A stretch of 54,942 bases of DNA from Patescibacteria group bacterium (GCA_023485405.1 JAMCZU010000006.1:1-54942), one strand, 5' to 3'; positions 1,078 to 51,794 are shown, counted from the stretch's first letter. Notes: generated by a model from the letters alone, not told the origin. A program made the numbers and translations.

Positions 1078-1113
1078 AATTACACTTTTTTAAAGTGTTT
1101 TTTAATAAAAAAA

Positions 1114-1135
1114 CGGGCAGCGGAGGTGCTGCCCG
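1114..1135 (-). terminator. Rho-independent terminator for minus-strand CDS 1150-1425
   Basis: cgggcagc-ggaggt-gctgcccg hairpin, followed on the minus strand by a T7 run. Confidence 0.6.
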
Positions 1136-1149
1136 GAGTTCGTAGATAG

Positions 1150-1425
1150 TTAGGCTTCCACAAGAGGGATGTCGACACGATCTTTGTCGAAGAGTCGGCA
1201 GTCACAATAGTGAAGGTTTCGTTTGGTGACTTTGGAGCGTGGAAATTGTGGGGTTAATATGGCGTATTGGCTGTCAGGAGAAGCTGATTGTGAACACTTT
1301 TCTGCGAAAGGGCAGTCTGGGAGAAAAGTGCAAGACAGCTCTGTTACTTCGCCAAGTAGTTTACCTTGGAATACTCCAACAACGACCGAGACGGTAACAT
1401 CGGGACGATTTAATAGTTTTTCCAT
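1150..1425 (-). CDS. Hypothetical protein, GC-rich orphan (about 91 aa from second ATG)
   Basis: ORF 1150-1452. The internal ATG at 1425 is preceded by ggaagggggg. TGcTAAAAT extended -10 at 1451-1459 and own terminator. Composition is clearly GC-richer than neighbours. No recognisable family. Confidence 0.4.
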   Translation of the reverse strand: MEKLLNRPDVTVSVVVGVFQGKLLGEVTELSCTFLPDCPFAEKCSQSASPDSQYAILTPQFPRSKVTKRNLHYCDCRLFDKDRVDIPLVEA

Positions 1426-1506
1426 TGGCTCGTTCCCCCCTTCCACGCTCATTTTAGCATAGTCATTTATCCACAGTTTTTTATGTCTACTCTTGACCCC
1501 AGCACA

Positions 1507-1593
1507 ACTTCTTTCTGCAAAACGGACTTCGTCCTGTTATTGCAGAAGCGTCGCATGCGGGGTCTGCGCCCTGTCGAATGACAGGGCTTGACA
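1507..1593. repeat. Dispersed repeat family B, copy 1 (two-tier hairpin ttctgcaa-acggac-ttc-gtcctg-ttgcagaa, ending in TTGACA)
   Basis: Near-identical to 23925-24001 and related to 11523-11630. Confidence 0.8.
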
Positions 1594-1616
1594 AATCGTA
1601 TTATATATGGTATAGT
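1588..1616 (+). promoter_or_regulatory. Sigma70-type promoter
   Basis: TTGACA (1588-1593), 17-nt spacer, TGgTATAGT extended -10 (hexamer 1611-1616). Confidence 0.6.
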
Positions 1617-1633
1617 AACAATTAACAAGACCG

Positions 1634-1750
1634 AAAAAGGCACACCTGTTGTAAGACAGGGTCGCAAAACCACGGGTCCGACTCGAGTAATCGAGGGATA
1701 GCCGGGTTGCCGGAAATGTGCTCACAGAGTTCGTTTCGGCGAATTTTTTG
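1634..1750 (+). promoter_or_regulatory. Candidate c-di-GMP-I (GEMM-I)-like riboswitch aptamer (1634-1713) plus putative terminator (1709-1750)
   Basis: AAAGGCACACC-UGUU-GUAA-GACA-GGGUCGCAAAACC-ACGGGUC...(CUCGA-GUAA-UCGAG)...GAUAGCCGGGUUGCCG matches remembered GEMM-I blocks GGCAAACC / GGGACGCAAAGCC / AGCGGGGUUACCG. Stem gccg(g)aaa/tttcggc followed by a T-run overlaps the 3' end of the aptamer. Confidence 0.5.
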
Positions 1751-1780
1751 GTTTTGTCACTTTCTAACGGAGGTGACAGA

Positions 1781-2023
1781 ATGTCACAAATACCTATTCC
1801 TGGAAGTAAGCGATTGCCTCTAGTTGTGGAGGCAAATGAGGTGGCTCATCTTAACTATCGAGTTTGGCGAAATTCAGTCATCTATTTTAAGATCCGCCTT
1901 AAAAGCGGTGGTTTGAGCCAACTTGCCCAGCTTTCTTATCCGGGCTTTCAGCGACCTGAAGAGATAGTAACTACATGCTGCTGTTGCGGCGAGAAAGTGA
2001 GAGCGACCATCTTCTTTTTTTGA
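1781..2023 (+). CDS. Hypothetical small protein (80 aa, CCCC motif near C-terminus), GC-rich orphan
   Basis: ATG at 1781 lies 7 nt after GGAGGTG. The longer track ORF start at 1718 has no RBS. Strong terminator follows. Confidence 0.45.
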   Translation: MSQIPIPGSKRLPLVVEANEVAHLNYRVWRNSVIYFKIRLKSGGLSQLAQLSYPGFQRPEEIVTTCCCCGEKVRATIFFF

Positions 2024-2036
2024 TTGATGGTCTTTT

Positions 2037-2066
2037 GCCCCCGCTAACCGCGGGGGCATTCTTTTT
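2037..2066 (+). terminator. Rho-independent terminator
   Basis: 8-bp GC stem gcccccgc/gcgggggc with 5-nt loop, then attcttttt. Confidence 0.8.
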
Positions 2067-2105
2067 AATTGATTTTTTCATATTTTTCCCATATAATATA
2101 ACTAT

Positions 2106-2192
2106 GCCCGGGTGGCGAAATTGGCACACGCGCATCCTTGAGGTGGATGTGCCCGCAAGGGCTTGGAGGTTCGAGTCCTCTTCCGGGCACCA
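2106..2192 (+). tRNA. tRNA-Leu (anticodon GAG), type II, CCA encoded
   Basis: Acceptor GCCCGGG/CCCGGGC-like. Anticodon stem CATCC/GGATG with loop TTGAGGT. Long variable arm. GGTTCGAGTCC. Confidence 0.9.
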
Positions 2193-2193
2193 A

Positions 2194-2268
2194 GGGCGGT
2201 TAGCTCAGCGGTAGAGCGCTTCGCTTACATCGAAGATGCCGTAGGTTCGAATCCTTCACCGCCCACCA
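2194..2268 (+). tRNA. tRNA-Val (anticodon TAC), CCA encoded
   Basis: Acceptor GGGCGGT/ACCGCCC. D-arm GCTCAGCGGTAGAGC. Anticodon stem CTTCG/CGAAG with loop CTTACAT. Confidence 0.85.
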
Positions 2269-2275
2269 ATAAAAT

Positions 2276-2812
2276 ATGGAATACAAAATTGTTTATTTTT
2301 TTAATCATCTTGGGTCGGGGACAATAGTTGATAATTTCTCGTTCTATTTTAGCTGGATCCCGTTTTTGGTTGTTTTTTGGTTTTTGCTGGCACTTTTAGC
2401 CCTAATTTTTGATAAAACCAATGGTAAAAGAATTTTCTGGGGAGTAGTTCTATTAGCGGTAATCTATTTTATTATCAATGATCTGATTTTAAAACAAACT
2501 TTGGCGAGTGCTTTTTTCCGCCAACGACCGTACATTGCTCATGCTGATACGATTATTCCTTTGGGAGAATTATTTAGTGATTCATCTTTTCCTTCTGGTC
2601 ATATGGCGATTACCGTTGCCCTTTCAACTTTTTTCCTTTATTTTTATCGTAAATGGTGGATTTGGGTTTTGGTCATAATCTTTGTTCTTTTAATGGCTTT
2701 TTCTCGTTTGCATAACGGCATGCATTACCCAACTGATATTTTAGCTGGCATTATTTTTGGTCTTGGCTACGGCTTTTTGACTGTTCTAATTAGTAAAAAG
2801 ATATTTAGTTAA
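2276..2812 (+). CDS. PAP2-family membrane phosphatase (undecaprenyl-diphosphatase-like)
   Basis: Multi-TM protein with PAP2 motifs SFPSGH and SRLHNGMHYPTD. Confidence 0.8.
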   Translation: MEYKIVYFFNHLGSGTIVDNFSFYFSWIPFLVVFWFLLALLALIFDKTNGKRIFWGVVLLAVIYFIINDLILKQTLASAFFRQRPYIAHADTIIPLGELFSDSSFPSGHMAITVALSTFFLYFYRKWWIWVLVIIFVLLMAFSRLHNGMHYPTDILAGIIFGLGYGFLTVLISKKIFS

Positions 2813-3830
2813 TATCTAGCTCTATTGAGTTATTTGTTTCAACTCCTAAAGATTTTTTAAGATTATTGATAATTTTTTCTTTTTCAATGTTTTCTAAAAC
2901 ATATGGTCTTAGATGCAAACTGCCAAGGGGAATTAGCTCCAGGGTTAATTTTTTGGCATTAATTTTGCCTTTAATTGCCAGTCCTCTTTGGGTTTCTCTG
3001 GAAAAAGTTTGATCAAAAAGGAAGTTGCCTAAAGAATAAAAAATTGGCTTTTCTTTATATATTTCGGCGTCTTGAATGACGTGAGGGTGTGAACCAATAA
3101 TTAAGTCTACACCCTGATTAATCCAAGTATGAGCCAATCTTGCTTGTTTTTGATTATGAATTGTTTGATATTCATCTCCCCAGTGAGGGAAAATAATAAC
3201 AAAAGCGCCGTTTTCTTTTTGTTCTTTAATTTTTTCTTCCAAATCTGGTGTGTTGGCAAGAGTGTTAACGGCGATAACGCTAATTTTAAGATTTCCTTTT
3301 TGAAAAGTTTGAACTAAATCAGCGGAATTTTTCGAATTACCGATTGTGGTAATTTGATTATTATTTAGCAGTTCTTTGGTAAAATTAAATACATTTGTGC
3401 CTTGGTCAAAAGTATGGTTATTACCGAGACTTACAGTATTAATTCCAAGCCATTTTAAAGCATCTTTTGTTTGAGGAGGGAACTTCATGACCAAATTATC
3501 AGGGGTAATATCGGGGATAAATTTTTGATTTACGATTGGTCCTTCAAGATTTAGTATTTTAATATCGCCTTGAAAAAAATTTTGATCTAAATCTCGAAAG
3601 GCTTTGGTTAAATCGTTGCCAAATTGGTCGTAAACGGCTCGGCCAAATATGGCATCGCCGGCAAAAGTAAAAGTTATTTCATCTTCGTTTTTTTTAAGAC
3701 TTTCAAAAGTTGCTAAAACTTTCGGTTCTGAATCATTAATTTTTTCGGTCGTAATTTTAAAAATATAAATAAAAGATGTAACCACACAAAGACTTAGAAA
3801 AATTAATAAATATTGAATGGGTTTGGTCAT
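2805..3830 (-). CDS. CapA-family (PGA_cap metallophosphatase-like) protein with N-terminal TM anchor
   Basis: FTFAGDAIFGR, SLGNNHTFDQG, FPHWGDEY, GSHPHV and YSLGNFLFDQ are typical of the CapA family. Confidence 0.75.
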   Translation of the reverse strand: MTKPIQYLLIFLSLCVVTSFIYIFKITTEKINDSEPKVLATFESLKKNEDEITFTFAGDAIFGRAVYDQFGNDLTKAFRDLDQNFFQGDIKILNLEGPIVNQKFIPDITPDNLVMKFPPQTKDALKWLGINTVSLGNNHTFDQGTNVFNFTKELLNNNQITTIGNSKNSADLVQTFQKGNLKISVIAVNTLANTPDLEEKIKEQKENGAFVIIFPHWGDEYQTIHNQKQARLAHTWINQGVDLIIGSHPHVIQDAEIYKEKPIFYSLGNFLFDQTFSRETQRGLAIKGKINAKKLTLELIPLGSLHLRPYVLENIEKEKIINNLKKSLGVETNNSIELDIN

Positions 3831-3937
3831 AAATTAATTATATCTAATAAGCGGGTTTATTGATAATTTCCTAGATGTATGTTAAGATAAATTTGATCTA
3901 AATATCAGCCTCCTAACAATTATCAAAAATTAACGAT

Positions 3938-4012
3938 GCCTGGGTAGCTCAGTGGTAGAGCACATGACTGAAAATCATGGTGTCGTGAGTCCGATTCTCA
4001 CCCCAGGCACCA
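3938..4012 (+). tRNA. tRNA-Phe (anticodon GAA), CCA encoded
   Basis: Acceptor GCCTGGG/CCCAGGC. GCTCAGTGGTAGAGC. Anticodon stem CATGA/TCATG with loop CTGAAAA. Preceded by TTGATA-17-TAAGAT (3860-3888). Confidence 0.9.
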
Positions 4013-4015
4013 CGT

Positions 4016-4408
4016 ATGATTAATTTTGAAAAATTCTTAACAAAAAGTTATATTTTCGAAATAACGCCCACAACTGTTGGTTTTTATAAATACCTAGCAA
4101 TTGTTTTTGGTTTATTTATTCTGACGGCGTTGATTTTAATAGTAAAATCAAAGAGAAAAGAAGAGATTTGGAAAAATCTTTATGTCAAAATTATCAATTT
4201 GCTTTTATTTGGTGGTGCTTTTGGCTTAATTCTTATCTTTTTTCGCTACGAAGGCATTCCTTATCTTGGTAGTAGACTATTTCTTTTAATCTTGTTGCTG
4301 AGTTTAACTTTTTGGACAATGACAATAGTTTGGTATAGATTTAAAATTTTACCTTATAAAATTAAAGAACATCAAAAGCGAAAAGCTTTTGAAAAATACC
4401 TACCTTAA
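4016..4408 (+). CDS. Hypothetical membrane protein
   Basis: 130 aa with 3-4 hydrophobic segments. No family recognised. Confidence 0.5.
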   Translation: MINFEKFLTKSYIFEITPTTVGFYKYLAIVFGLFILTALILIVKSKRKEEIWKNLYVKIINLLLFGGAFGLILIFFRYEGIPYLGSRLFLLILLLSLTFWTMTIVWYRFKILPYKIKEHQKRKAFEKYLP

Positions 4409-4463
4409 GGCAAGCCAAAAGGCTTGTCCTGAGCGTAGTCGAAGGATGGGATAAAGGATAATA

Positions 4464-5645
4464 ATGAAAAATTCTGAAACAATGAAAGATTTGGCCACTA
4501 ATTTGGGTAGTAGACTTGTGCCTATTCACAATGGAGAATTAGCTGAAGTAAAAATCCTCCAAATTTTAAAGAACAAAATGATTGTTGATGTTGGTGGGTT
4601 TACGCTTGGAATTATTCCAGAGCAAGAATTTTCACCCGAAGTTGGAGATTTTAAAGTTGGCGATAAGATGCTAGCTTATGTTCTAACGATTGAAAATGAC
4701 GAAGGTTATGTTATTTTATCACTTCGTCGAGCCGACAAAGAAAGAGTTTCAAAAATTCTTCATGACAAATTTGAATCAGGTGAAGTTTTACCAATTAAAG
4801 TCTTAGATGCCAACAAAGGTGGTCTTCTTTGCCAATTTGGCGATTACGAAGGTTTTTTGCCGGTTTCGCAATTAGCCACTTCACACTATCCAAAAGTAGC
4901 TTCTGGTAATCGTGAAGAAATTTTTAGTCGTTTAAAATCTTTAGTCGGACAGACTTTACAGGTCAAAGTTTTGAGTTTTGAGCCGGGTTCGGGAAAGTTA
5001 ATTTTTTCTGAAAAAGCGGCTGGTGATATTGCTCAATTTGAAAAAATTAAAGGTATTAAGATTGATGATGTTTTGGAAGGTGAAATAACTGGAATTGTTG
5101 ATTTTGGTTTATTTGTCAAAATAAAAATTGATTCAGATGAAGTTGAAGGACTTGTTCATATTTCGGAAGCTTCTTGGGAACACATTGATGACTTAAAAAG
5201 CAAATTTAAAATTGGCGAGAAAATTACGGTCAAAGTTATTTCAAAAGAAGATAATCGTTTATCGCTTTCTTTGAAGCGTCTAGAACCAGATCCTTGGCTT
5301 AAATTAGCGTCATCTTGTAAAGTTGGTGATGTGGTGGACGCAAAAGTAACTAAAATTACTCCTTTTGGTGCTTTTGTAAAATTGGGCACGATTGATGGTT
5401 TAGTGCATATTTCCGAGCTTGGTGATAAGGTAGCTGATCCTAAAGCCATCGTTGAAGAAGGAAAATCTTATAAATTTAAAATTATGTCCATTGAGCCAGA
5501 GTTACATAAATTAAGCCTTTCATTAAAAGCGGTGGCAGAAAAAGAGACTCCAGTAAAAAAAGAAGAAGCAAAAGTGGAAAAACCAAAAAAAACCAAAAAA
5601 ACGCTCAAAAAAACTGTAACTAAGGCTAAAAAAGGAGAGGAATGA
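4464..5645 (+). CDS. rpsA: 30S ribosomal protein S1 (four S1 domains, Lys-rich tail)
   Basis: Repeated S1-domain signatures (GEITGIVDFGLFVKI, AKVTKITPFGAFVKL, LVHISE). Confidence 0.85.
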   Translation: MKNSETMKDLATNLGSRLVPIHNGELAEVKILQILKNKMIVDVGGFTLGIIPEQEFSPEVGDFKVGDKMLAYVLTIENDEGYVILSLRRADKERVSKILHDKFESGEVLPIKVLDANKGGLLCQFGDYEGFLPVSQLATSHYPKVASGNREEIFSRLKSLVGQTLQVKVLSFEPGSGKLIFSEKAAGDIAQFEKIKGIKIDDVLEGEITGIVDFGLFVKIKIDSDEVEGLVHISEASWEHIDDLKSKFKIGEKITVKVISKEDNRLSLSLKRLEPDPWLKLASSCKVGDVVDAKVTKITPFGAFVKLGTIDGLVHISELGDKVADPKAIVEEGKSYKFKIMSIEPELHKLSLSLKAVAEKETPVKKEEAKVEKPKKTKKTLKKTVTKAKKGEE

Positions 5646-6115
5646 TTATTACTTGGGAGGCAAAAGAAAACTTTACGATTAAAACTCGAAATAAAACAGT
5701 TAAAATTGGTGAAAATATTTCTTTAGGCGATCTTAAAATAAACACACCCGGCGAATATGAATCAGGTGGAGTTCAAATGGAAGTTATTGACGGCACGATT
5801 GAGATTTTTTCAGAAAAGATGATGATTGCTTGGATGAAAAAAGCTAAAGTTTTATCCGACAGCGAATTAGAAAAATTAAGCGGTATTGATGTTTTGCTCA
5901 TTGGCATAGGCGGTGGCGCATTTACCGAAACAAAACAAGCTTTGGAAGTGATTAATCAAATTGATCCCAAAGTAGTGATTCCGATGTATGAAAAAGACTT
6001 AGAAAGTTTTACTAAAGAAGAGGGTATAAATACGCAGGGGCAAGATCAATTCAAATTTACTTTAAATGATTTGCCAGCTGAAGAAAGAAAAGTAATTATC
6101 CTTAATGCTAGTTGA
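5642..6115 (+). CDS. Hypothetical protein (possibly degenerate MBL-fold-like)
   Basis: ATGA overlap with rpsA. Weak resemblance to Lactamase_B_3-type proteins, but no HxHxDH motif. Confidence 0.45.
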   Translation: MIITWEAKENFTIKTRNKTVKIGENISLGDLKINTPGEYESGGVQMEVIDGTIEIFSEKMMIAWMKKAKVLSDSELEKLSGIDVLLIGIGGGAFTETKQALEVINQIDPKVVIPMYEKDLESFTKEEGINTQGQDQFKFTLNDLPAEERKVIILNAS

Positions 6116-7067
6116 TAAACTTATCTCTAAAATTAAAAATTACGAAAATATTTTATTAATGGTGCATGTTGAGCCAGATGGTGATACGTTGGCCGCGACA
6201 GTTGCATTTTACATTGCTCTAAAGAGTCTTGGTAAAAAGGTTTCAATGGTCTGTATTGATGAAATTCCGAAACCTTTTTTATTTTTACCGCAAATTAAAA
6301 ATATTCAAAAAGATATTTTATTTGGTGACTTTGAAGTAATTATTGTGATTGATTGTGGTGATTTGCGAAGGACCGGTTTTCCGGAAAGATTGAAAAAATT
6401 TGCTAAAGTTTTTAAAAATTTTATCAACATTGATCATCATCCTAAAAATGATTTGTGGAAAATTGCTAATATTAATATTGTTGACCAAGGTGCTTCATCC
6501 GCCTCGGAAATTGTTTGGGAAATATTAAAAAAATTGCCGGTCGAATTAAATTGTGATATTGCCACGGCCATTTTGACAGGAATTTATACTGATACCGGTG
6601 GTTTTAAGCATTCCAACACTAGTCCGAAAACTTTAGAAATAGCGGCCGAACTTTTGGCTCACGGGGCAAGGCTTAAAACTATTACTAAAAATGTTTCTTT
6701 AAATAAAAGTGTAGCGGCTTTAAAACTTTGGGGAGTGGCTCTTTCCAGACTGCATAAAAATCAATATTTACAAATTGTCTCTTCGGTTATTACTCGTCAG
6801 GATTTGGATGATTGTGGGGCGACTTATTATGAGTTAGCGGGTGTAGTAAATTTAATGAATTCAATTCCCGATTCTAAAGCAGCCATTTTATTTTTTGAAA
6901 CACCAGAGGGTAATATTAGGGCATCGCTTCGGACTGAAAAAGACAGTGTTGATATTGGTAAAATTGCCAAGCTTTTTGGTGGTGGTGGACATAAAAAAGC
7001 GGCCGGTTTTACCATTGAAGCAGAATTAAAATTAAATGATACACAATGGGAGATTTTATTGAAATAA
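6105..7067 (+). CDS. DHH/DHHA1 phosphoesterase (NrnA-like oligoribonuclease/pAp phosphatase)
   Basis: Motifs DGDTLAA, DCGD, DHH and GGGHKKAAGF in canonical order. Confidence 0.8.
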   Translation: MLVDKLISKIKNYENILLMVHVEPDGDTLAATVAFYIALKSLGKKVSMVCIDEIPKPFLFLPQIKNIQKDILFGDFEVIIVIDCGDLRRTGFPERLKKFAKVFKNFINIDHHPKNDLWKIANINIVDQGASSASEIVWEILKKLPVELNCDIATAILTGIYTDTGGFKHSNTSPKTLEIAAELLAHGARLKTITKNVSLNKSVAALKLWGVALSRLHKNQYLQIVSSVITRQDLDDCGATYYELAGVVNLMNSIPDSKAAILFFETPEGNIRASLRTEKDSVDIGKIAKLFGGGGHKKAAGFTIEAELKLNDTQWEILLK

Positions 7068-7095
7068 GGTAAGTTTTGAGGTAAAATATAGATAG

Positions 7096-7181
7096 GCCGG
7101 GATGTTGGAACTGGTAGACAATGTAGACTTAAAATCTATTGAGGGCAAAACCTCGTGCGGGTTCGAATCCCGCTCCCGGCA
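7096..7181 (+). tRNA. tRNA-Leu (anticodon TAA), type II, no encoded CCA
   Basis: Acceptor GCCGGGA/TCCCGGC. Anticodon loop CTTAAAA. Variable arm GAGGGCAAAACCTCG. GGTTCGAATCC. Confidence 0.85.
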
Positions 7182-7196
7182 ATTAAAAACAAAATT

Positions 7197-7898
7197 ATGG
7201 GAATGACTCCCAAAAAACATATAAATATTCAGTTTTTTAAGCAATGGTCTTCTGACATGGCTTATATTTTAGGTTATATTGCCGCAGATGGAAACATTCA
7301 TAAACGAAAAAACAGAATTAATAGCTGGATGTTGAACATAACATCCAAAGATAAAAATCATTTAGTAGTTCTTAAAAATGCAATGAATTCTGATCATGGT
7401 ATTTCTTCTAAACAGAATGGCCAAGGGGATGTATCTTATCAATTAATAATTTGTCATGCCGAAATTTGTAAAGATTTGAGAAGACTTGGCATTCATCCTC
7501 GAAAAACTTTTACTCTTAAACCAATCAAAGTACCTAAAGAATTTTTTTCTGATTTTGTAAGAGGCTATTTCGATGCTGATGGTTCGGTTTATATTTATGT
7601 TGTAAATGGCACTCCACAAATTAAAGCACATTTTACAGGAGCAAGTCGTATTTTTATCGAGAAGTTAGGTTTAATTTTGTCGCAACTGCTTGGAATAAAG
7701 GAAAAGCCAATTTATACCACAAAAGCTAAAGGCGTTAGACAAAATATGTATCATTTTGATTTTTATATTAGAGATTGCCAGAGACTTTTTGACTTTATGT
7801 ATACACCAATGCCGTCTTTGTATTTATCTAGAAAATATGAAATGTTTGAAAAGTGGAAGTTTGTAAAAAGAAGACACTATATTAGGCAAGTTGCTTAA
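7197..7898 (+). CDS. LAGLIDADG homing endonuclease (double-motif), free-standing
   Basis: Two LAGLIDADG motifs (YILGYIAADGNI and VRGYFDADGSV). ATG at 7197 lies 16 nt after tRNA-Leu. The track start at 7155 would overlap the tRNA. Confidence 0.8.
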   Translation: MGMTPKKHINIQFFKQWSSDMAYILGYIAADGNIHKRKNRINSWMLNITSKDKNHLVVLKNAMNSDHGISSKQNGQGDVSYQLIICHAEICKDLRRLGIHPRKTFTLKPIKVPKEFFSDFVRGYFDADGSVYIYVVNGTPQIKAHFTGASRIFIEKLGLILSQLLGIKEKPIYTTKAKGVRQNMYHFDFYIRDCQRLFDFMYTPMPSLYLSRKYEMFEKWKFVKRRHYIRQVA

Positions 7899-7956
7899 TT
7901 TTGTAAAAAATATTCGACAAAGCAATTCTTTCTTGGTAAGATGAATTTGAGGACTT

Positions 7957-8577
7957 ATGAGAAGATTGGTCAAATTTATTATCGTCATTGTTGTTACGGT
8001 GGTAATTTTAGGTGGTTTTTATTTTTTCTTTCCCCATATTTGGGGTGAATTACTTTATCCTTTAGATTATAAAGATTCAATTAAAAAATACTCAGAGGAA
8101 CGGGGTCTTCGACCTAATTTTGTCGCCGCCGTTATCTATACGGAAAGTCGTTTTAACCCTAAATCTGTTTCGTCTGTAGGCGCAGTTGGTTTGATGCAAA
8201 TTATGCCAGGTACCGCTGATTCAATTGCTTCCGAAATAGGAGAAAAAACGGGTGATTTAACAGATCCCGAAACTTCAATTAAATATGGTACTTGGTATTT
8301 AAAGGGTTTATCTGATAAATATGGTGGCAATACTGATTTAATTTGTGCGGCTTATAATGCCGGGGTGGGTCGAGCTGACAAATTTAAGGATGGAGTAACG
8401 GGGCTGCCATCGGAAACGACTTTTTTTATTCAAAAAGTTAAAAATACCGAAATTATGTATGATAAAATTTACGATTCTTGGTACTCACAAAGTCAATCGG
8501 AAAAGAAAAATCCAGTCGCCATTGGTTTTTCTAATATTTCTGACTATGTCAAAAAACTAATTCTAGGAAATAGATAA
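7957..8577 (+). CDS. Lytic transglycosylase (SLT domain) with N-terminal TM
   Basis: ESRFNPKSVSSVGAVGLMQIMP and AAYNAG motifs. Confidence 0.8.
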   Translation: MRRLVKFIIVIVVTVVILGGFYFFFPHIWGELLYPLDYKDSIKKYSEERGLRPNFVAAVIYTESRFNPKSVSSVGAVGLMQIMPGTADSIASEIGEKTGDLTDPETSIKYGTWYLKGLSDKYGGNTDLICAAYNAGVGRADKFKDGVTGLPSETTFFIQKVKNTEIMYDKIYDSWYSQSQSEKKNPVAIGFSNISDYVKKLILGNR

Positions 8578-8579
8578 AA

Positions 8580-10238: not shown

Positions 10239-10256
10239 TTAAAATAAATCTAAATT

Positions 10257-10823
10257 ATGAACAAGGTAAAATATCTTTTGACCTATCGTTATGCCGAAAT
10301 CATTCATGATTTGACAGTGGAATTTACTCAAACTTATGTTTTAAGTGGCTTAAGTAACTTAAGAAATCTAAGTTTTCAACGAAGGCCAGATTTTAGGACA
10401 GCCGATCAAATGAATCAAGCTGCTCGAAGTGGTAAACAAAACATTGTCGAAGGAGTTGGGCAAAGCCAAACTTCTTCCAAAGGGTTAATTAAACTTTTAG
10501 GGGTTGCCAACGCTTCTTTTGAGGAACTTCTTTCTGATTATGAAGATTTTCTTCGTCAAAATAAATTAACAATTTACCCAAAAACCGATCAAAGAGTAAC
10601 TGATTTTAGGAAACTTGGTTATCGTCTAAGTGACTTAGGCGAGCTTGAGGAAAAGCCAAAACTTTTAGGCAATCCGGAAAAAGACGCTAATTTTCTTTTG
10701 ACACTTTGCCACTTGGAAACTTATCTTTTGGGTAAACAAGTTAAAGCAGCTGAAGATAAGTTTGTTGAAGAAGGCGGTTATTCGGAAAATCTCTTTAAAA
10801 GAAGACTCCAAAACCGCGAATAA
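10257..10823 (+). CDS. Four-helix-bundle protein (23S rRNA IVS / Avd-like family with C-terminal suffix domain)
   Basis: NIVEG...ASFEEL pattern and overall length resemble four-helix-bundle plus suffix-domain proteins. Not adjacent to an RT. Confidence 0.5.
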   Translation: MNKVKYLLTYRYAEIIHDLTVEFTQTYVLSGLSNLRNLSFQRRPDFRTADQMNQAARSGKQNIVEGVGQSQTSSKGLIKLLGVANASFEELLSDYEDFLRQNKLTIYPKTDQRVTDFRKLGYRLSDLGELEEKPKLLGNPEKDANFLLTLCHLETYLLGKQVKAAEDKFVEEGGYSENLFKRRLQNRE

Positions 10824-10878
10824 TCTAAAATAGTGTAAGAATTCTACGGTCGTAGAAAAATCGCACTTTTTAAAACTC

Positions 10879-10909
10879 TTGACAAATGCAGAGAGAGAGA
10901 GAGTTAAAT
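10879..10909 (+). promoter_or_regulatory. Sigma70-type promoter with (AG)7 tract in a 19-nt spacer
   Basis: TTGACA 10879-10884, spacer aatgc(ag)7 of 19 nt, TTAAAT 10904-10909. Confidence 0.45.
10890..10903. repeat. (AG)7 dinucleotide tract
   Basis: Direct reading. Confidence 0.95.
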
Positions 10910-10964
10910 GAAAATTAGGAAGGCAAAAGCTTTCTAAGATTTAATAAGTTTTGAGGAGGAAAAA

Positions 10965-11630: not shown

Positions 11631-11638
11631 AGGGAAAA

Positions 11639-46302: not shown

Positions 46303-46374
46303 TGGTGGTCAATCGTAGACAATATTAGAACTGCGATTATGAATCATGAGAGCGAAATTGTAATTCCAAAAATA
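46303..46374 (+). repeat. 72-bp direct repeat, copy A
   Basis: 58 of 72 positions identical to 47147-47218 by my count. Confidence 0.8.
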
Positions 46375-46385
46375 GCTCCCATCTC

Positions 46386-46414
46386 TTGATTTCCCTCTCT
46401 TTTTTTAGTATACT
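46386..46414 (+). promoter_or_regulatory. Sigma70-type promoter
   Basis: TTGATT, 17 nt, TATACT. Confidence 0.55.
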
Positions 46415-46447
46415 TACCTATGACTTTTAGACTTGGAGGTGAGTGAT

Positions 46448-46975
46448 TTGACAATAAAGTTTTCCACCGAAAGTAAAGTGTTTGAAAAGGTCATTATTGG
46501 TATTTTGCAGCAATCTGGTTACCGTTTAGTCAAAGATTGGAAAAAAATCGGGCCACAGAAAAAAGGAATTAAGCGATCAGCTCAGTACCAGGATTGCATT
46601 CTAAAGGTTGATTTCTGGCTTCACTTTCCAATATCATCCGATACTTCCATTTGGCTTCCGATTCAACTGACTGGTTGTCCGCAGAGCAAAGAAAATCTTA
46701 GGCGAAGAATAGAACGCAAGCAAAGACAACTGGATTGTCTGCACGAATCGAAGCATTCTGTTATCTTTGTTGCATTGAATCAAAAACGAGCAAAGGAGGC
46801 TTTGGAAGGAAATATTAAGCAAGAGCTTAAGTTAGTCGTTGAGGAATTTGAAAGTGCTGTTCGGGAGCAATTGACGAAGCCAGACTTGCTGACAATATCG
46901 GAAGGTTTTCGACTCGACACTCATTATACAAAAACTCGCCAAGCGGCGAAAAAGCGAGATCAAACTGCCAGTTGA
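46448..46975 (+). CDS. Hypothetical protein (about 175 aa), GC-richer orphan
   Basis: GGAGG lies 8 nt before the TTG at 46448 (alternative starts at 46433 and 46439). Own terminator. Confidence 0.5.
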   Translation: MTIKFSTESKVFEKVIIGILQQSGYRLVKDWKKIGPQKKGIKRSAQYQDCILKVDFWLHFPISSDTSIWLPIQLTGCPQSKENLRRRIERKQRQLDCLHESKHSVIFVALNQKRAKEALEGNIKQELKLVVEEFESAVREQLTKPDLLTISEGFRLDTHYTKTRQAAKKRDQTAS

Positions 46976-46990
46976 ATATTGGCAGTTTTT
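46964..46990 (+). terminator. Rho-independent terminator (stop codon in loop)
   Basis: actgcca-gttgaatat-tggcagt followed by tttt. Confidence 0.7.
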
Positions 46991-47065
46991 AATAAAAATA
47001 GGATATAACCCAATCCTGAGGTGGAGTATATTTATAACTCTTATTAATTTTTTAAATGTTTTATT

Positions 47066-47116
47066 AAAAACAGGCCTAAAATATTAAGTTGAATTTAATA
47101 TCTCAAGCCTGTTTTT
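47066..47116. repeat. Repeated bidirectional terminator-like hairpin, copy 1 (aaaaacaggc...gcctgttttt)
   Basis: About 85% identical to 48039-48090. Confidence 0.7.
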
Positions 47117-47146
47117 GTGTTGAAAACACCACCAATTTGGTGGTGT

Positions 47147-47218
47147 TGGTGGTCAATCGTCGAGGATGTTCGAACTGCAATTATGAATTACGAGGGAGAA
47201 ATTAAGATTCCAAAATTA
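47147..47218 (+). repeat. 72-bp direct repeat, copy B
   Basis: See copy A. Preceded by hairpin caccacca-attt-tggtggtg. Confidence 0.8.
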
Positions 47219-47229
47219 TCATCTACCGA

Positions 47230-47258
47230 TTGCCAATCTAGTGAATTATTGCTATAAT
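47230..47258 (+). promoter_or_regulatory. Sigma70-type promoter
   Basis: TTGCCA, 17 nt, TATAAT. Confidence 0.6.
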
Positions 47259-47285
47259 ATAACTGTAATTAAAAAAGGAGCATTT

Positions 47286-47969
47286 ATGAATCAAAATCAA
47301 CCGGTTTCATCCAATCCTCAAGGTAGTTCGCTTAAATGGCTGCTGATAATTTTAGCGGTAGTCGTAATTTTAGGTGGTGGTTATTTGCTGTATGCAAAGT
47401 ATGGTAAAAAATCATCTACAGCTACCACTACAACCAGTCCTACGACAAAAACGTCAAATCCGGCAACGACAACAACGCCAACCACCACCACAGATAAAAC
47501 AGCAACTTGGAAAGCTTACACGAGCTCATTAGGAGGTTATACTGTTAAGTATCCCACCACTTGGGTTTACGGCAAAGATTCGGCTACCGACGCTCAAACT
47601 GCTGGTTATATTTCTCAAGCGATTTGGTACAAGGATCAAGCACAAAAGTCAGCTCAGGTTGGTCAAGAATTTCAAGTTGATATTACGACGAACAACACTA
47701 CTAAGACATTGGACCAGGAAGTTCAAGCACGTAAAACGGCTATTACCAGCGAAGACCCATCTTTCACATTTGCATCTACAAAATCAACAATTGGAACCCA
47801 TAGTGTTGCTACATTAGAGGTTACAGATAAGAATGGTAAAAATAATGGTTTTTCATATATTTTCATTGAGAAAGGTAAAATATTTCAAATTAGTGTCGGC
47901 TTATTAGCAGAAGCATCTACGAAAACTGAAACTGTTAAAACGATGATCGAAACAATTACTCTACAATAA
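47286..47969 (+). CDS. Hypothetical exported/anchored protein with Thr/Pro-rich linker
   Basis: AAGGAG lies 7 nt before the ATG at 47286. N-terminal TM, then the TTTTSPTTKTSNPATTTTPTTTT linker. Confidence 0.55.
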   Translation: MNQNQPVSSNPQGSSLKWLLIILAVVVILGGGYLLYAKYGKKSSTATTTTSPTTKTSNPATTTTPTTTTDKTATWKAYTSSLGGYTVKYPTTWVYGKDSATDAQTAGYISQAIWYKDQAQKSAQVGQEFQVDITTNNTTKTLDQEVQARKTAITSEDPSFTFASTKSTIGTHSVATLEVTDKNGKNNGFSYIFIEKGKIFQISVGLLAEASTKTETVKTMIETITLQ

Positions 47970-48038
47970 TCTCTTCAATCACAAAATAAGCAAAAGGCCG
48001 TCTTAATAGGCGGTTTTTTGTTGTGTAAAATCGTAACT

Positions 48039-48090
48039 AAAAACAGGCGTGAAATATTAAGCAAAATTTAGTACTTCAAGCCTGTTTTTT
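48039..48090. repeat. Repeated bidirectional terminator-like hairpin, copy 2
   Basis: Lies between convergent CDS 47286-47969 and tRNA-Asp. Confidence 0.7.
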
Positions 48091-48092
48091 CT

Positions 48093-48170
48093 TGGCGGGC
48101 CCGACCGGATTCGAACCGGCGATCTTCGCCGTGACAGGGCGACGCGATTAAACCACTACGCTACGGGCCC
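48093..48170 (-). tRNA. tRNA-Asp (anticodon GTC), CCA encoded
   Basis: The reverse complement reads GGGCCCGTAGCGTAGTGGTTTAATCGCGTCGCCCTGTCACGGCGAAGATCGCCGGTTCGAATCCGGTCGGGCCCGCCA. Confidence 0.9.
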
Positions 48171-48866
48171 AAACCTTTTTATGTTCTCTTTAAATTTTAA
48201 ATGTTTTCTTACAATATACAATGATTTTTCACAATCCTTATATATGAATTTAAATAATTTATTACTATCCTTCGAGGCATAAGCTAACCTATAGCCTAAA
48301 TGAAAACATAATGTTCCCAATGTTAATTGTGCATTCTTTTGTAAAATTAATTGTAATTCTTGTAAAAAATCTTTACTTCCTGAAGTAAAACCGCTTAAAA
48401 GCGCTTTGCCTAAAGACGGACGATTTTTTCTTTTAAAATGGCAAAAATTACTATGTCCATCACCATCAAAATATCCTCGTACAAAATGGGATAAAAATTT
48501 TGCTGGAACTGTTAGAAATTGCATAACATTACTTTTATTGGGCATGAAACCTATTCTGACAAGATCCTGAAATATTTTCTTGCTACCTATTTGTAATCGG
48601 TATGCATCTTTACAATTAACTTTTCCTATTCTTAGTCCAATCTTGTGATTTGACTTAAGGCATTTTTTAATGTTCTCTATGATTTCTTTATCAGTAGAAA
48701 CAAATTCAATATATTTATTATTTCTTTTACTGTTGATGGTTAGACAGCCATCGGCGGCGAAAAATCCCAAGATATAAGCCATATTTGGCGACCACTTGGT
48801 GAAGAATTCTTCATCTACATAACAAATATTACTCTTCTTTTTAGACCAAACTTCTCGTTCGTCCAC
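48156..48866 (-). CDS. LAGLIDADG homing endonuclease (double-motif), free-standing
   Basis: YILGFFAADGCL and VRGYFDGDGHS. The last 5 codons overlap the 5' end of tRNA-Asp. Confidence 0.8.
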   Translation of the reverse strand: MDEREVWSKKKSNICYVDEEFFTKWSPNMAYILGFFAADGCLTINSKRNNKYIEFVSTDKEIIENIKKCLKSNHKIGLRIGKVNCKDAYRLQIGSKKIFQDLVRIGFMPNKSNVMQFLTVPAKFLSHFVRGYFDGDGHSNFCHFKRKNRPSLGKALLSGFTSGSKDFLQELQLILQKNAQLTLGTLCFHLGYRLAYASKDSNKLFKFIYKDCEKSLYIVRKHLKFKENIKRFGPVA

Positions 48867-48980
48867 TTTCCCTACCTTACCTTATAATTATATCTGATTT
48901 TTTGGTGAATTTCAACTGCTGTTTGAAAAGAAAATAATATTGTTCTATACTTAAAATAAGCTTAAAAAATTGGAGGGTTT

Positions 48981-50711
48981 ATGAAGAAAAAAACACAAAA
49001 TGTTCTCATTGAGCTTTTATTAGTCTTTTTTATGTTGGCTAATCTTTTGGTTTTTTCGACCGCTTACGGATTTTATGGGGTTAACAATTTGTCTATCACT
49101 CGAATCATGCCGGCTCAGCGAAATTTGGCTGATCAGCGAATGAAGGCGGCGGGGATTGGCTGGGCTAGAGAAGAATTTAATTGGGGATTGATTGAGCCGA
49201 GAAATAACCGTTGGAGTTGGGCAAATCCCGATCAGGCCATGGCCACACATCGTCGCAATGGTGTTCAAGTTGTTGGTATGTTGGCCTATACTGCATCATG
49301 GGCTTCAAGTTGTGGTGGTGCTAACGCTCAATTTTGTAAGCCTAATATTAATGAGTGGAAAGACTATGTTGGCGCGGTGGCCCGTCGTTATGGCGATGTT
49401 ACTAACTGGGAGATTTGGAATGAACCAAACGCTTTTTGGCGGCCCAGTCCTAATCCGGATGAATACCGAGAAATTTTAGTCGCAGCTTACGATACGATAA
49501 AATCAATTAACCCTTCAGCCAAAGTAGCGAGCGGTGGCACAACTTATATTGATAATGATTTCATCAATAGCGTTTTAAATAATGGTGGTTGGGAACATCT
49601 TGATGCAGTGGCGGTCCACTACTATCCTGGAGCTGGGCCAGAATCGGTTCCCGGCAATCGTTTAAGAGAAGAGCTATTGAATCTTGAGAACAATACCATT
49701 GCACCTCACGGTGGTCCAAAAGAAATTTGGGTGACAGAGATGGGTTGGCAATCAAGTCAGATTGGACTAACAGCTCAAGCGGAAGTACTTTCCAGAGCGC
49801 TGATTATTGCCCGGACGGTCAATGAAGCACCTAAAATTTTAATTTATAATCTGCGTGATGATCCGACAGGTACTTATGGTTTGGTGGATAGAAGTTTTCG
49901 GCCAAAAACCGCTTATAATTATTATAAAAAAACCGTTGAGTTTTTGGGCAACAAATGGCCAGCGCAATTAATTGATTTAGACGATGGTTCAAAGTTTTAT
50001 GTTTTCGATGGACCGGGTGGGCCAATGGCGGCAGCCTGGAATCCTGACGGCACGCGGGTCAAAGGCTTTCATATTAATTCTTCCAGTATCCGTTGTTACG
50101 ATATTACGGGGCAATCTACTACTACCACAAGAAGTAAAACAGGTACGGTTACTAACAACCGAAATATTGATGTTACTTCGAGTGTAGTTAAAAGTTGGAA
50201 TAATGGTGATGTCACTTTAGAATTTAAATCGCGGCCAATTTTTTGCCAGCTAAGCAATTTCTCCGCTTTAAACACGGTGCCTTCAAGTAACCTGCCTCAA
50301 GTGGCGGGAGCAAGTATTAAAGCTCAAGTGGCGGGAGTAACAAGTGTAGATGTGGCCACTCAAAATAATTCTCTGTCCAAAATTACCGGTAGTATTCAGA
50401 ATGAATTTTCGGGCGCGATGGATGCAAAAGTCATTGCTTACAAAGAGAACGGTTCGACTTGGCAAAAACAAAGTGAAACTTCGACCAATGGTGGCTCATA
50501 TAGTTTAGATCTACCGGAGGGAAAATATTATCTTGCTTATAAAATGCCTGGGTTGCTAACCAGTCGAACGGAGCCTTTTGAGGTTAAAGGCGATTCTGAT
50601 ATTAGTCTAGAAACAAGGCTTTTGAGTAGTTGGGTGGCTTATAGTATTTTATTGGGTGGTGTTGTGATTTTAATTTTGTTTATTTTGAAATATACTCGTC
50701 GAAAAACCTAA
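48981..50711 (+). CDS. Clan GH-A glycoside hydrolase (GH5/GH39-like) with C-terminal beta-sandwich region and TM anchor
   Basis: WEIWNEPN (acid/base Glu) and WVTEMGW (nucleophile Glu). N-terminal signal/TM and C-terminal TM. Confidence 0.65.
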   Translation: MKKKTQNVLIELLLVFFMLANLLVFSTAYGFYGVNNLSITRIMPAQRNLADQRMKAAGIGWAREEFNWGLIEPRNNRWSWANPDQAMATHRRNGVQVVGMLAYTASWASSCGGANAQFCKPNINEWKDYVGAVARRYGDVTNWEIWNEPNAFWRPSPNPDEYREILVAAYDTIKSINPSAKVASGGTTYIDNDFINSVLNNGGWEHLDAVAVHYYPGAGPESVPGNRLREELLNLENNTIAPHGGPKEIWVTEMGWQSSQIGLTAQAEVLSRALIIARTVNEAPKILIYNLRDDPTGTYGLVDRSFRPKTAYNYYKKTVEFLGNKWPAQLIDLDDGSKFYVFDGPGGPMAAAWNPDGTRVKGFHINSSSIRCYDITGQSTTTTRSKTGTVTNNRNIDVTSSVVKSWNNGDVTLEFKSRPIFCQLSNFSALNTVPSSNLPQVAGASIKAQVAGVTSVDVATQNNSLSKITGSIQNEFSGAMDAKVIAYKENGSTWQKQSETSTNGGSYSLDLPEGKYYLAYKMPGLLTSRTEPFEVKGDSDISLETRLLSSWVAYSILLGGVVILILFILKYTRRKT

Positions 50712-50745
50712 ATTTTTGTTCTCAAATCTTTTAATTTCAGGGGTG

Positions 50746-50925
50746 TTAACCAAAATGTCCACCTCGTAGGTGGACAACAGGTTTAGGAATGTAAAGAACT
50801 ATTGACAAAAAGGTTATTTTAAGGTGTAATAACATGTAATATTGAGTAGTTTAACAATTTTTCCTTGGAGCTTATTTGGTCGGGAAAATAGTCAGTTTAT
50901 CCTGATTAGATAAGCTCTAAGGAGC
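50746..50925 (+). repeat. 180-bp cassette 5' module, copy 2
   Basis: Near-identical to 15919-16098. Confidence 0.9.
50802..50830 (+). promoter_or_regulatory. Sigma70 promoter (copy of the DGR-target promoter)
   Basis: TTGACA, 17 nt, TGTAAT. Confidence 0.6.
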
Positions 50926-50976
50926 TATAAGATCGCGAAAATCCCTGAATCCTGAGTTTATCGAAGGACAGGTGCG

Positions 50977-51687
50977 ATGAAGAAAGGACTGACCATGTCG
51001 GAAGATATGCTCAGCAAGACGCTAGTCCGAGAGCTACCCGGACTGATGCGCGACTTCATGAAGAAAGTGCTCGGCGACAACGGACAAGAATGGATAGAGG
51101 CCTTCAAGAGGTTCTTGAAGAAGCAGAACCCTTGGTCCGATGCATCTTCGTCCAAACCAGCTAAGAAGCGTCTCAAAGTGCTCCAGCCACTAAAAGCGGT
51201 TGCCGAGTTCTTGATGACGTTGGAATTCCGAGCTGCTGACAACTTCAGTATCACACCGCAGGATCAGAAAACAACCGCAGAAGTAGTCATTGGTTTCCTT
51301 AATGACAACTTCAAGAACGCGTTTCTTGCGAACGGCGGAAAGGTCGAGACCAGCATCTTTGACTCCAAGCTTCGGCCTTATCGTCTCAAGAAGGCGTCGG
51401 TAGACGGTCCGATCATTGCTGATCTCGGCGGAGAAGAGAAGGTTGAGACCACTCTTGCCGAGATGTTCACGCTGATGAAGGCACAGGGCTGTGGACGGCG
51501 AGGCATCCTGCTAACTAATGGCTATGCCAACATCTTCTATGTAAGAGACGCTAAAGGTATACTTTGGGTGGTCTCTTGCGCTTGGTTCTCGGACGATCAG
51601 TTTTGGCTCGTTCGTGCCTATCCAATTACGGATCTGAGTACATGGAACGCTGAGCGTCAGGTGTTCTCTCGTGATTTTGGTTCTTAG
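50977..51687 (+). CDS. Paralog of the DGR target protein (236 aa), GC-rich, no TR-matching VR
   Basis: Shares the 5' module, the 3' flank and C-terminal pattern (..IF.V...KG.LW......VFSR..GS*) with CDS 16148-16816. Confidence 0.7.
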   Translation: MKKGLTMSEDMLSKTLVRELPGLMRDFMKKVLGDNGQEWIEAFKRFLKKQNPWSDASSSKPAKKRLKVLQPLKAVAEFLMTLEFRAADNFSITPQDQKTTAEVVIGFLNDNFKNAFLANGGKVETSIFDSKLRPYRLKKASVDGPIIADLGGEEKVETTLAEMFTLMKAQGCGRRGILLTNGYANIFYVRDAKGILWVVSCAWFSDDQFWLVRAYPITDLSTWNAERQVFSRDFGS

Positions 51688-51704
51688 TTTCTTTGGTCTT
51701 GTCT

Positions 51705-51726
51705 GGGCCCCGCATGAGCGGGGTCC
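51705..51726 (+). terminator. GC hairpin terminator (copy of 16858-16879) followed by T-rich tract
   Basis: gggccccgc-atga-gcggggtcc followed by aattttgttttgtttt. Confidence 0.7.
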
Positions 51727-51794
51727 AATTTTGTTTTGTTTTATCTTCCAATTTCAGGGGAAATTTGCTAAAATTAATGCAGAATGGGGAAAAT

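Follow-up and report, generated by a model that had tools for sequence, protein, structure and literature searches.

We analysed a 54,942-bp stretch of Patescibacteria DNA (the window, meaning the whole stretch at its full length; 36.5% G+C), in which small GC-rich open reading frames (ORFs) lie among the housekeeping genes of an AT-rich, Berkelbacteria-like genome. The original prediction, made from the sequence alone, was that these ORFs are acquired, self-expressing cassettes that insert at, or arrive together with, a recurrent hairpin. The reading we favour, and consider probable, is that the window carries a mixed set of accessory, insulated expression units in a genome largely poor in Shine–Dalgarno (SD) sequences, that two of these units are variable-protein cassettes of diversity-generating retroelements (DGRs), and that the hairpin resembles a repetitive extragenic palindromic (REP) element. 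The housekeeping gene order is syntenic with that of Berkelbacteria/Patescibacteria metagenome-assembled genomes (MAGs), and the class I LysRS is 84% identical to that of the nearest relative (locus L001) and 61–73% identical to those of six others (L002–L007). The window was compared with related loci, with contigs from public metagenomes and with those of three sequencing runs; X1, a mine-tailings metagenome run available as Logan contigs, contains 94% of the region's words. No RNA-seq run was found to contain the region.

A DGR cassette after yceG and an orphan relative

The segment following yceG contains the features listed here, including a template repeat (TR), a variable repeat (VR) and a reverse transcriptase (RT) gene; GC3 is the G+C fraction at third codon positions.

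15905–15922 (+), left direct repeat, TTAAAACAGTCTAATTAA, formed by the last yceG codons
15923–18723 (+), DGR cassette insert, 2801 bp, strain-variable, with target, TR, avd and frameshifted RT
15975–16003 (+), promoter of the DGR target, TTGACA-17-TATAAT, 12/12
16030–16103 (+), leader RNA hairpin, long and near-perfect, including G-U pairs, z −5.7
16148–16816 (+), DGR variable-protein (target) gene, GC3 0.62, with the VR at 16665–16797
16857–16880 (+), GC-rich hairpin after the VR, GGGCCCCGC-GTGA-GCGGGGCCC, which also scores as a terminator
17196–17328 (+), TR, from its alignment to the VR
17371–17710 (−), avd (bAvd; PF22296, E 2.7e-23), inverted, between TR and RT
17709–18721 (+), putative DGR RT, with a frameshift in a (GA)8 tract at 18244–18259
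18708–18725 (+), right direct repeat, TTAAAACAATCTAATTAA, containing the RT stop codon in a frame that differs from that of yceG

The VR and TR align without gaps, and all of the mismatches between them (16/16) fall at TR adenines. Assignment of the RT comes from the RVT_1 Pfam profile, which matches both halves of the frame-split ORF (E 3.3e-8 and 3.3e-3). The hairpin at 16857–16880 is positioned where DGRs have a GC-rich inverted repeat, downstream of the VR and its initiation of mutagenic homology (IMH) sequence (PMC5758913). The leader hairpin is common to the 50.7-kb cassette described below and is partly present in L023. Composition is split within the unit, with a GC-rich target, leader and TR and a host-like avd and RT.

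The cassette is present in only part of the sampled population. An X1 contig joins position 15922 directly to 18724 at a depth of 36, compared with 51 for the filled allele, which is represented by a 2715-nt X1 contig identical to 16054–18768 (0 mismatches). From this joint, the insert therefore spans 15923–18723, with a hairpin as its first element and the RT as its last. Its flanking direct repeats are 18 nt long with one mismatch, and the longest found in shuffled sequences was 12 nt. In five relatives mreB directly follows yceG, in L001 only csrA lies between them, and in other relatives the YceG|MreB site holds different GC-rich cargo. A related DGR (Avd 74%, RT 57–80% identical) occupies another position, between LysRS and SerRS, in L006. 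Flanking repeats were also found for an unrelated DGR in L025, where a 25-nt repeat with one mismatch has its right copy over the RT stop codon, in a frame unlike that of the upstream gene.

Two side observations concern these elements. The RT of L006 is also frameshifted within a (GA)n tract (~14360–14385), in the opposite sense; the frame would be restored by one GA unit fewer in the window RT and by one more in that of L006. Judged by sequence, these frameshifts look like repeat-slippage on/off switching of the RT. The X1 and X2 contigs contained no length variant of the tract, and it was absent from five other DGR RTs checked. In L025, an unrelated Patescibacteria genome, four copies of a ~30-nt motif derived from a gene end (ATAGTGAAGACAAGGGTGGGGTAA-like; 5561–5595, 5766–5800, 8517–8545 and 8590–8620) are spread through the DGR locus and suggest that there may have been serial insertions behind one gene.

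A second cassette of this type lies at 50.7 kb.

50726–50743 (+), left direct repeat, ATCTTTTAATTTCAGGGG
50977–51687 (+), orphan member of the DGR-target family, GC3 0.59, likely start ATG 50995
51704–51727 (+), GC-rich hairpin, a copy of 16857–16880 (89%)
51743–51760 (+), right direct repeat, ATCTTCCAATTTCAGGGG

Its flanking repeats are identical at 16 of 18 positions, and none of 300 shuffles reached 18. It has the 5′ module (hairpin, promoter and leader) and the 3′ hairpin in common with the DGR target at 16148–16816, and the bodies between them differ. The cassette body has a depth of 12 in X1, and another contig bears the same leader with a third body. These observations suggest that bodies can be exchanged between flanks that stay conserved. 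IMH-like similarity between the local TR and the gene's 3′ end extends over only ~35 nt, and the window holds no second TR.

The protein encoded at 50977–51687 belongs to an unnamed family with at least 269 relatives, mostly on short contigs; the few with a recorded source come mainly from Patescibacteria MAGs. Family members adjoin an RT, with or without Avd, in five loci (L025, L026, L029, L030 and L031), and a classic VR/TR pair is readable in L025. Other members stand alone among housekeeping genes, the neighbours being the two halves of transketolase in L024 and, in L027, ddl and a P-type ATPase gene. The closest homologue (79%, L023) is downstream of a large serine recombinase. An AlphaFold model of the family (alignment A4) reached a pLDDT of 90.3 and a pTM of 0.73, and a Foldseek search with it against the PDB gave no match at E ≤ 0.001. 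Because the model is confident and lacks a PDB match, the family is predicted to have neither a C-type lectin nor an immunoglobulin variable protein fold.

A dispersed hairpin repeat

Three copies of the hairpin had been counted; the window holds four copies of TGTCCACCT-N3-AGGTGGACA, compared with none in 100 shuffles.

15919–15959 (+), copy 1, TTAACCAAAA-TGTCCACCT-CGT-AGGTGGACA-ACAGGTTTAG; its TAA is the yceG stop codon, and it is the first element of the DGR insert
26170–26210 (+), copy 2; its TAA is the lysS stop codon, and it lies upstream of a conserved terminator/extended −10 module
42243–42283 (+), copy 3, core at 42253 with the loop inverted (ACG), inside the 3′ end of tsaE
50746–50786 (+), copy 4, at the start of a 187-nt 5′ module common with 15919–16105

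The repeat unit is ~41 nt (TTAACC....GGTTTAG) and folds with a triloop on a 9-bp inner stem, which an asymmetric internal loop of 4/3 nt separates from an outer 4-bp AACC/GGTT stem; copy 1 folds at −17.3 kcal/mol (z −3.8). The copies at 15.9 and 50.7 kb are not independent, because both sit in one 187-nt duplication (95% identity) that spans hairpin, promoter and leader. Copy 3 is followed by tsaB, has no cassette and is translated as a 16-aa C-terminal extension of TsaE that is missing from eight of nine homologues. One relative, L032, has the element at the matching tsaE site, with 39 of 41 nt identical to 42243–42283 (89% over the whole alignment; TsaE 75% identical).

The hairpin is dispersed well beyond the window. 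Its core word has a depth of ~1225 in X1, compared with ~50–100 for single-copy sequence, and occurs with many different flanks, which we estimate to represent roughly 10–20 copies. The common left edge of the repeat is sharp at 15919–15921 in X1 contigs, and in at least four contexts the hairpin is followed by the same promoter region (...AAAGAACnnTTGAC(A)). Exact copies were found in 15 metagenome contigs, of which several are AT-rich and have gene content resembling that of Patescibacteria. The L020 contig has two copies in direct orientation, one on each side of a 388-aa ORF that lies between dprA and rplK. Orientation relative to neighbouring genes is variable, and two copies score as intrinsic terminators on the minus strand. 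The hairpin was absent from the orthologous sites in all seven relatives (L001–L007), and a search of viral contigs gave 0 matches. Rfam returned no significant match for the hairpin, leader and TR region, only weak ones to RT-7 (21.5 bits; gathering threshold 116.8) and SpF44. For a reading of the palindrome as a LexA operator, a literature search yielded no paper devoted to LexA motifs in Patescibacteria.

The element behaves like a dispersed, REP-like palindrome of ~40 nt that is placed at a stop codon or immediately behind one, and several copies are joined at a fixed distance to one type of promoter. As a short imperfect palindrome with many extragenic copies (four in 55 kb, and the X1 depth), it resembles REP elements; the window contains no gene for a REP-associated tyrosine transposase (RAYT; Y1 HUH transposase). 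DGR-type cassettes have the promoter-fused form at their extreme 5′ end. The idea that cassettes insert at the hairpin or arrive with it thus survives in part: with the DGR-type cassette the hairpin heads the inserted segment and is missing from the empty allele. It does not survive as a general rule of insertion, since relatives carry cargo without the hairpin, one copy lacks a cassette and the repeat is dispersed and multi-copy.

Composition, expression signals and sites of the units

Further units occupy other gaps between conserved genes or positions beside tRNA genes.

1150–1425 (−), small GC-rich ORF between two tRNA-Leu genes, with a GC-rich terminator at 1114–1135
1630–1715 (+), c-di-GMP-I-GGC riboswitch aptamer (RF03167, 68.7 bits; gathering threshold 59), downstream of a promoter at 1588–1616
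1781–2023 (+), 80-aa GC-rich ORF under the riboswitch, with a terminator at 2036–2058
18770–18967 (−), csrA (PF02599), GC3 0.45, at the same site in L001
26216–26258 (+), terminator-like hairpin, AATCAGGTC-GAAA-GACTTGATTTTTTGGTATAAT, with a T run and an extended −10
26324–26898 (+), two-gene operon (86 and 105 aa, ATGA overlap; GC3 0.53 and 0.47)
46306–48091 (+), two-unit array with ORFs 46448–46975 and 47286–47969

The LysRS|SerRS gap is variable among the relatives. The two genes abut in L002 and L007; L001 has two tandem pairs homologous to the 26.3-kb operon; L003, L004 and L005 have unrelated cargo (with a weak ROK-like match in L003); and L006 has the DGR of the window type. In every case the GC3 of the cargo is above the local background, and wherever there is cargo, SerRS also has a separate extended −10 promoter. 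The terminator-like hairpin and T run precede differing cargo in five genomes (the window, L001, L004, L005 and L006), with a compensatory change at one base pair of the stem, and the exact extended −10 (TGGTATAAT) is kept in the window, L004 and L006 but not in L001 or L005. The 105-aa protein found only itself in a word-based search, and an exhaustive search found three relatives among 1.8 billion representatives. Flanking repeats at this cassette were not above chance. Here, the TGTCCACCT hairpin is either a separate later insertion or was lost in the relatives.

At the array, each unit is bracketed by one copy of a 72-nt repeat (46303–46374 and 47147–47218) and one of a 76-nt repeat (47041–47116 and 48014–48089); the 72-nt repeat reads as a displaced coding remnant. 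An X1 contig from a coexisting strain skips the whole array (joint 46305→48092, depth 27). A second palindrome similar in style to the dispersed hairpin (ACACCACCA-ATT-TGGTGGTGT; CCACC/GGTGG core, 9-bp stem, 3-nt loop) lies at 47126–47146, on the left border of the array's second unit. The ORFs 1150–1425(−) and 1781–2023 are divergent, and both are located between the two tRNA-Leu genes. A joint 1067→2193 was considered as an empty site for this pair and was not used; the joint has a side of only 21 nt and also occurs in other organisms. Between csrA and mreB, an ORF of 181 aa at 19021–19566(−), of host-like composition and with no Pfam or PADLOC match, is missing at that position in L001, and would therefore be another insertion, in this case AT-rich. 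Pfam and PADLOC likewise gave nothing for the orphan ORFs or for the relatives' cargo, save the weak ROK match in L003.

Nine ORFs had been listed as GC-rich. Compared with the 52 other ORFs of the window (GC3 0.265 ± 0.038), eight of them are outliers (z 3.0–9.3) and one, 10965–11378, is normal.

16148–16816, DGR target, GC3 0.62, z 9.3
50977–51687, DGR-target family, GC3 0.59, z 8.5
26324–26584, operon, GC3 0.53, z 6.9
26581–26898, operon, GC3 0.47, z 5.3
18770–18967 (−), csrA, GC3 0.45, z 4.8
1781–2023, riboswitch ORF, GC3 0.41, z 3.8
1150–1425 (−), GC3 0.40, z 3.5
46448–46975, array, GC3 0.38, z 3.0
10965–11378 (+), GC3 0.31, z 1.2, with a strong SD yet no compositional outlier

The strong SD sequences ascribed to these ORFs were confirmed, with a median anti-SD duplex energy of −13.0 kcal/mol (n = 9) compared with −5.5 kcal/mol (n = 52; Mann–Whitney p = 1.8e-6). 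GC-rich terminators were also borne out: the four most GC-rich terminator-like hairpins of positions 1–20000 are all associated with cassettes. As to promoters, the top three sigma-70 matches in 1–20000 are all carried by cassettes.

15975, DGR target, 12/12, the best match in 1–20000
19024 (−), csrA, 11/12
1588, riboswitch ORF, 11/12 plus TG

The 26.2-kb unit departs from this pattern and has no −35/−10 pair. Because its TTGATT lies only 6 nt from the TATAAT, its promoter is taken to be the extended −10. The 15975 promoter has a copy at 50.7 kb that the scan did not list as a match; its second hexamer reads TGTAAT. At 10.8 kb, the promoter before 10965–11378 has a 19-nt spacer, within which an (AG)7 tract (10890–10903) is of the same repeat type as that in the DGR RT. 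A 3′ motif, ttt(t/a)atctt, that had been proposed to be shared by three units was not significant (8 matches; 7.0 ± 2.8 expected), and two of the three cases are paralogous. Around the SD of the cassette leaders (16090–16147, 26290–26323 and 50925–50994), GGA motifs are abundant, and csrA is itself GC-rich and SD-bearing. It is a speculation that CsrA might act mainly on the cassettes, native genes mostly lacking an SD.

For the DGR-target family and csrA, composition did not identify a foreign donor. The target family is GC-rich in all loci examined (GC3 0.66–0.74 in L023–L025 and 0.78 in L006, in loci of 36–43% G+C), and csrA is GC-rich not only in the window but also in L001, where its GC3 is 0.41 and the background 0.23. 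High GC3 is thus a trait of the DGR-target family in the loci examined, not a mark of recent import, and csrA is ancestral to the window and L001 and has stayed GC-rich. High GC3 with a strong SD is therefore a lasting property of the DGR-target family and of csrA, and may be one of the remaining units as well.

Origin of the units and further repeats

Presence and absence at syntenic sites was observed in two ways: a contig from the same sample lacks the DGR, and the corresponding sites of relatives are empty or otherwise filled. The view of the GC-rich ORFs as acquired, self-expressing cassettes is upheld in that there are accessory insertions between housekeeping genes, as seen from the DGR empty site, the variable sites of relatives and the flanking repeats; the part that failed is their unity, since they are not one class. 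By synteny, csrA and the 26.3-kb operon share their sites with the nearest relative, L001, an outcome that the original prediction had named as refuting it and that applies to these two. The DGR site is empty in a coexisting strain.

The units are complete expression units: each has its own promoter, a strong SD and a GC-rich terminator, and many also supply a new promoter to the housekeeping gene that follows. They recur at particular gene ends, and two or three of them have long direct repeats built from the end of the upstream gene. In the mechanism that we propose, units would be inserted at the 3′ ends of conserved genes or beside tRNA genes. The non-DGR units besides csrA would be lineage-restricted small genes, and csrA an old resident. 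Insertion would use or create direct repeats of ~18–25 bp from the last bases of the upstream gene. The first insertion may depend on a recombinase that is encoded elsewhere, or on recombination through short homologies, and later spread or loss within a population may proceed by homologous recombination through the conserved flanking genes.

Several points weigh against this account. The 54,942-bp window encodes no recombinase. Seven of ten DGR-type cassettes checked (L006, L024, L026, L027, L029, L030 and L031) have no flanking repeat above chance, and the repeats may therefore mark only recent events or a minority route and are not a defining feature; the cassettes without repeats would fit old insertions. 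No empty-site contig was seen for the 50.7-kb cassette. The strain of the DGR empty-site contig has nearby single-nucleotide polymorphisms and two extra A's, so the contig represents presence or absence between coexisting strains and not excision. The shorter side of the array joint is only 30 nt. Copy number of the hairpin is taken from contig word depth, which is rough, and some copies may be those of other organisms. Finally, the 26.3-kb operon has a GC3 of 0.47–0.53 in the window but 0.32–0.39 in L001, and the GC-richness of the non-DGR cassettes may be either maintained or foreign.

The hairpin could instead be the recombination site of a dedicated attC-like or REP/IS200-like cassette system, with insertion or exchange at its foot. 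The left edge of the 2.8-kb insert coincides exactly with the hairpin's outer foot (TTAA|CC), where the bottom strand reads G|TTAATT, and this resembles the integron crossover point, G|TTRRRY. The common left edge is sharp in at least six contexts, the fold resembles the attC arrangement of R box, spacer and L box, and the 388-aa ORF of L020 lies between two direct hairpins. However, the 18-bp flanking repeats are far longer than integron-type core identity, and an integron hairpin closes the 3′ end of promoterless cassettes, whereas here the hairpin is 5′ and the cassettes have promoters. The relatives' cargo at the same sites is hairpin-free, the tsaE copy is in a coding 3′ end without a cassette and is conserved in a relative, orientation relative to the neighbours varies, and no recombinase was seen in the window. 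We consider such a system unlikely. More doubtful still is that Patescibacteria possess a cassette-exchange system of their own, with a 5′ attC-like hairpin cap and plug-in bodies between conserved 5′ and 3′ modules, in which a hairpin-recognising recombinase encoded elsewhere would cut at the hairpin foot (TTAA|CC; G|TTAA on the other strand) and insert or swap cassettes at housekeeping stop codons. The cargo of such a system would be GC-rich, SD-bearing genes with promoters, among them whole DGRs and spare target genes.

Another possibility is that the GC-rich, SD-bearing genes are ordinary residents with a composition set by expression needs, such as translation control through GGA-rich leaders. 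This would accommodate the GC3 of csrA (0.41–0.46 at the same site in the window and L001, with backgrounds of 0.23–0.27), the DGR-target family being GC-rich in every locus examined and the strong SD contrast. It is contradicted by the exact empty DGR site, by sites without cargo in L002 and L007 but with differing cargo in L003–L006, by the flanking direct repeats and by the near-orphan status of the 26.5-kb protein. For the window as a whole we give it little credence; it is refuted for the DGR cassette and the LysRS|SerRS cargo and stands only for csrA. Movement of DGR-type cassettes by their own RT, through an RNA copy and target-primed reverse transcription with long target-site duplications, would explain why the 18–25-bp repeats of the window and L025 DGRs have their right copy over the 3′ end of the RT, the last gene of the unit, and why neither cassette carries an integrase. 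We know of no precedent for RT-driven cassette mobility. The unit also includes its promoter and the upstream hairpin, which would enter an RNA copy only by read-through; a similar repeat flanks the 50.7-kb cassette, which lacks an RT; the window RT is frameshifted; and the further degenerate repeat copies in L025 are more like serial gene-end insertions. This route appears very improbable. Assembly chimeras or GC-rich contamination might be suspected from the sharp composition borders and from the borders of the 5′ module, which are repeats where assemblers break. However, mismatch-free contigs from two runs span GC-rich and AT-rich parts (X1 16054–18768, X2 16633–19196 and X1 26332–29770), the arrangement recurs in L006, L025 and L029, and the TR/VR relation links the GC-rich target to the AT-rich RT. 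Chimerism was ruled out by the spanning contigs, and we attach almost no weight to an artefact of this kind.

The accessory-unit reading that we prefer has parts in common with several known systems. The DGR prototype is BPP-1 (mtd-avd-TR-brt), and DGRs of the candidate phyla radiation (CPR)/Patescibacteria have been surveyed (PMC5758913, PMC8144416), with sporadic presence among strains and atypical GC reported as signs of their horizontal transfer (PMC5758913). The window element is like these in its adenine-only TR/VR differences, bAvd, RVT_1 RT and GC-rich hairpin after the VR. It is unlike them in that avd is inverted, the RT is frameshifted in (GA)n and only the target, leader and TR are GC-rich; in addition, 18-bp direct repeats flank the unit, the same population contains its exact empty allele, and the 50977–51687 family is confidently modelled with what is predicted not to be a C-type lectin or formylglycine-generating enzyme (FGE)-like fold.

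For the hairpin, the classes for comparison are the enterobacterial REP elements and bacterial interspersed mosaic elements (BIMEs), and palindromes with outward promoters similar to miniature inverted-repeat transposable elements (MITEs), such as the Correia elements of Neisseria. Like these, it is an imperfect palindrome of ~40 nt that is multi-copy, found after stop codons or between genes in either orientation and linked in some copies to a promoter. Unlike them, it lacks terminal inverted repeats and target duplications of its own, has only ~10–20 copies and includes one translated tail that is conserved in a relative. With integron cassettes and attC sites the window has in common small single-gene units at fixed places, a folded imperfect border hairpin and a G|TT step at its foot. 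The cassettes nevertheless have their own promoters (of consensus type) and terminators, are dispersed, and have a 5′ hairpin and 18-bp repeats; most cargo at the matching hotspots in relatives is hairpin-free, the window encodes no integron integrase (IntI), and the R''/R' boxes (RYYYAAC / GTTRRRY) match by eye at only 5–6 of 7 positions. The hairpin was thus not assigned to attC. Core-gene hotspots and gene-end islands are similar in the changing cargo at each site, the direct repeats of the upstream gene end and the lack of an integrase inside, but differ in that the window units are small (0.8–2.8 kb), insulated and share a host-foreign GC3/SD signature.

DGRs that are sporadic among strains with atypical GC (PMC5758913), core-gene hotspots and REP-like repeats are therefore kinds already known. 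Four features appear to be undescribed: a DGR of two compositions, GC-rich in target, leader and TR but host-like in avd and RT; its exact empty allele with gene-end repeats; the hairpin–promoter cap; and a 'landing pad' of terminator and promoter that is conserved while its cargo changes. Gene gain and loss are little understood in Patescibacteria, whose genomes are tiny and streamlined. In the window, variable gene content can occupy very small, insulated units with host-unlike signals at recurrent gaps between essential genes; one of these units is an apparently complete hypermutation system, the DGR, of which a single community contains both filled and empty alleles, and a short palindromic repeat provides the outer end, and often the promoter, of some of them. 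The insertion chemistry, if identified, would explain the spread of DGRs and accessory genes in Patescibacteria, and might give a natural 'landing pad' logic for organisms beyond current engineering.

Additional repeats and small genes were observed in the window. A second dispersed repeat of ~80 nt (TTGACCCC...CTTTCTGCAAAACGGACTACGTCCTGTTATTGCAGAAG...) occurs at 1490–1570, 11519–11575 and 23900–23980. It precedes the riboswitch unit and two genes that are identified, from N-terminal sequence only, as FtsA-like and GreA-like. It folds as a long hairpin (z −6.2), has sharp edges (1490/1493 and 1569/1573) and an X1 word depth of 650–880, and this repeat family gave no Rfam match. Free-standing LAGLIDADG endonuclease genes at 48156–48866(−) and 7200–7898(+) adjoin tRNA genes (Asp and Leu, respectively), and in a coexisting X1 strain 22 nt replaces 48172–48898 (depth 36). 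Three copies of a pair of inverted arms of ~22 nt (GCCGGGTAGTGAAACTTCGACA...) are located at 32149–32236, 32625–32952 and 35413–35498; one pair encloses a gene for an 86-aa GIY-YIG nuclease (PF01541, E 1.7e-17), and the other two are empty.

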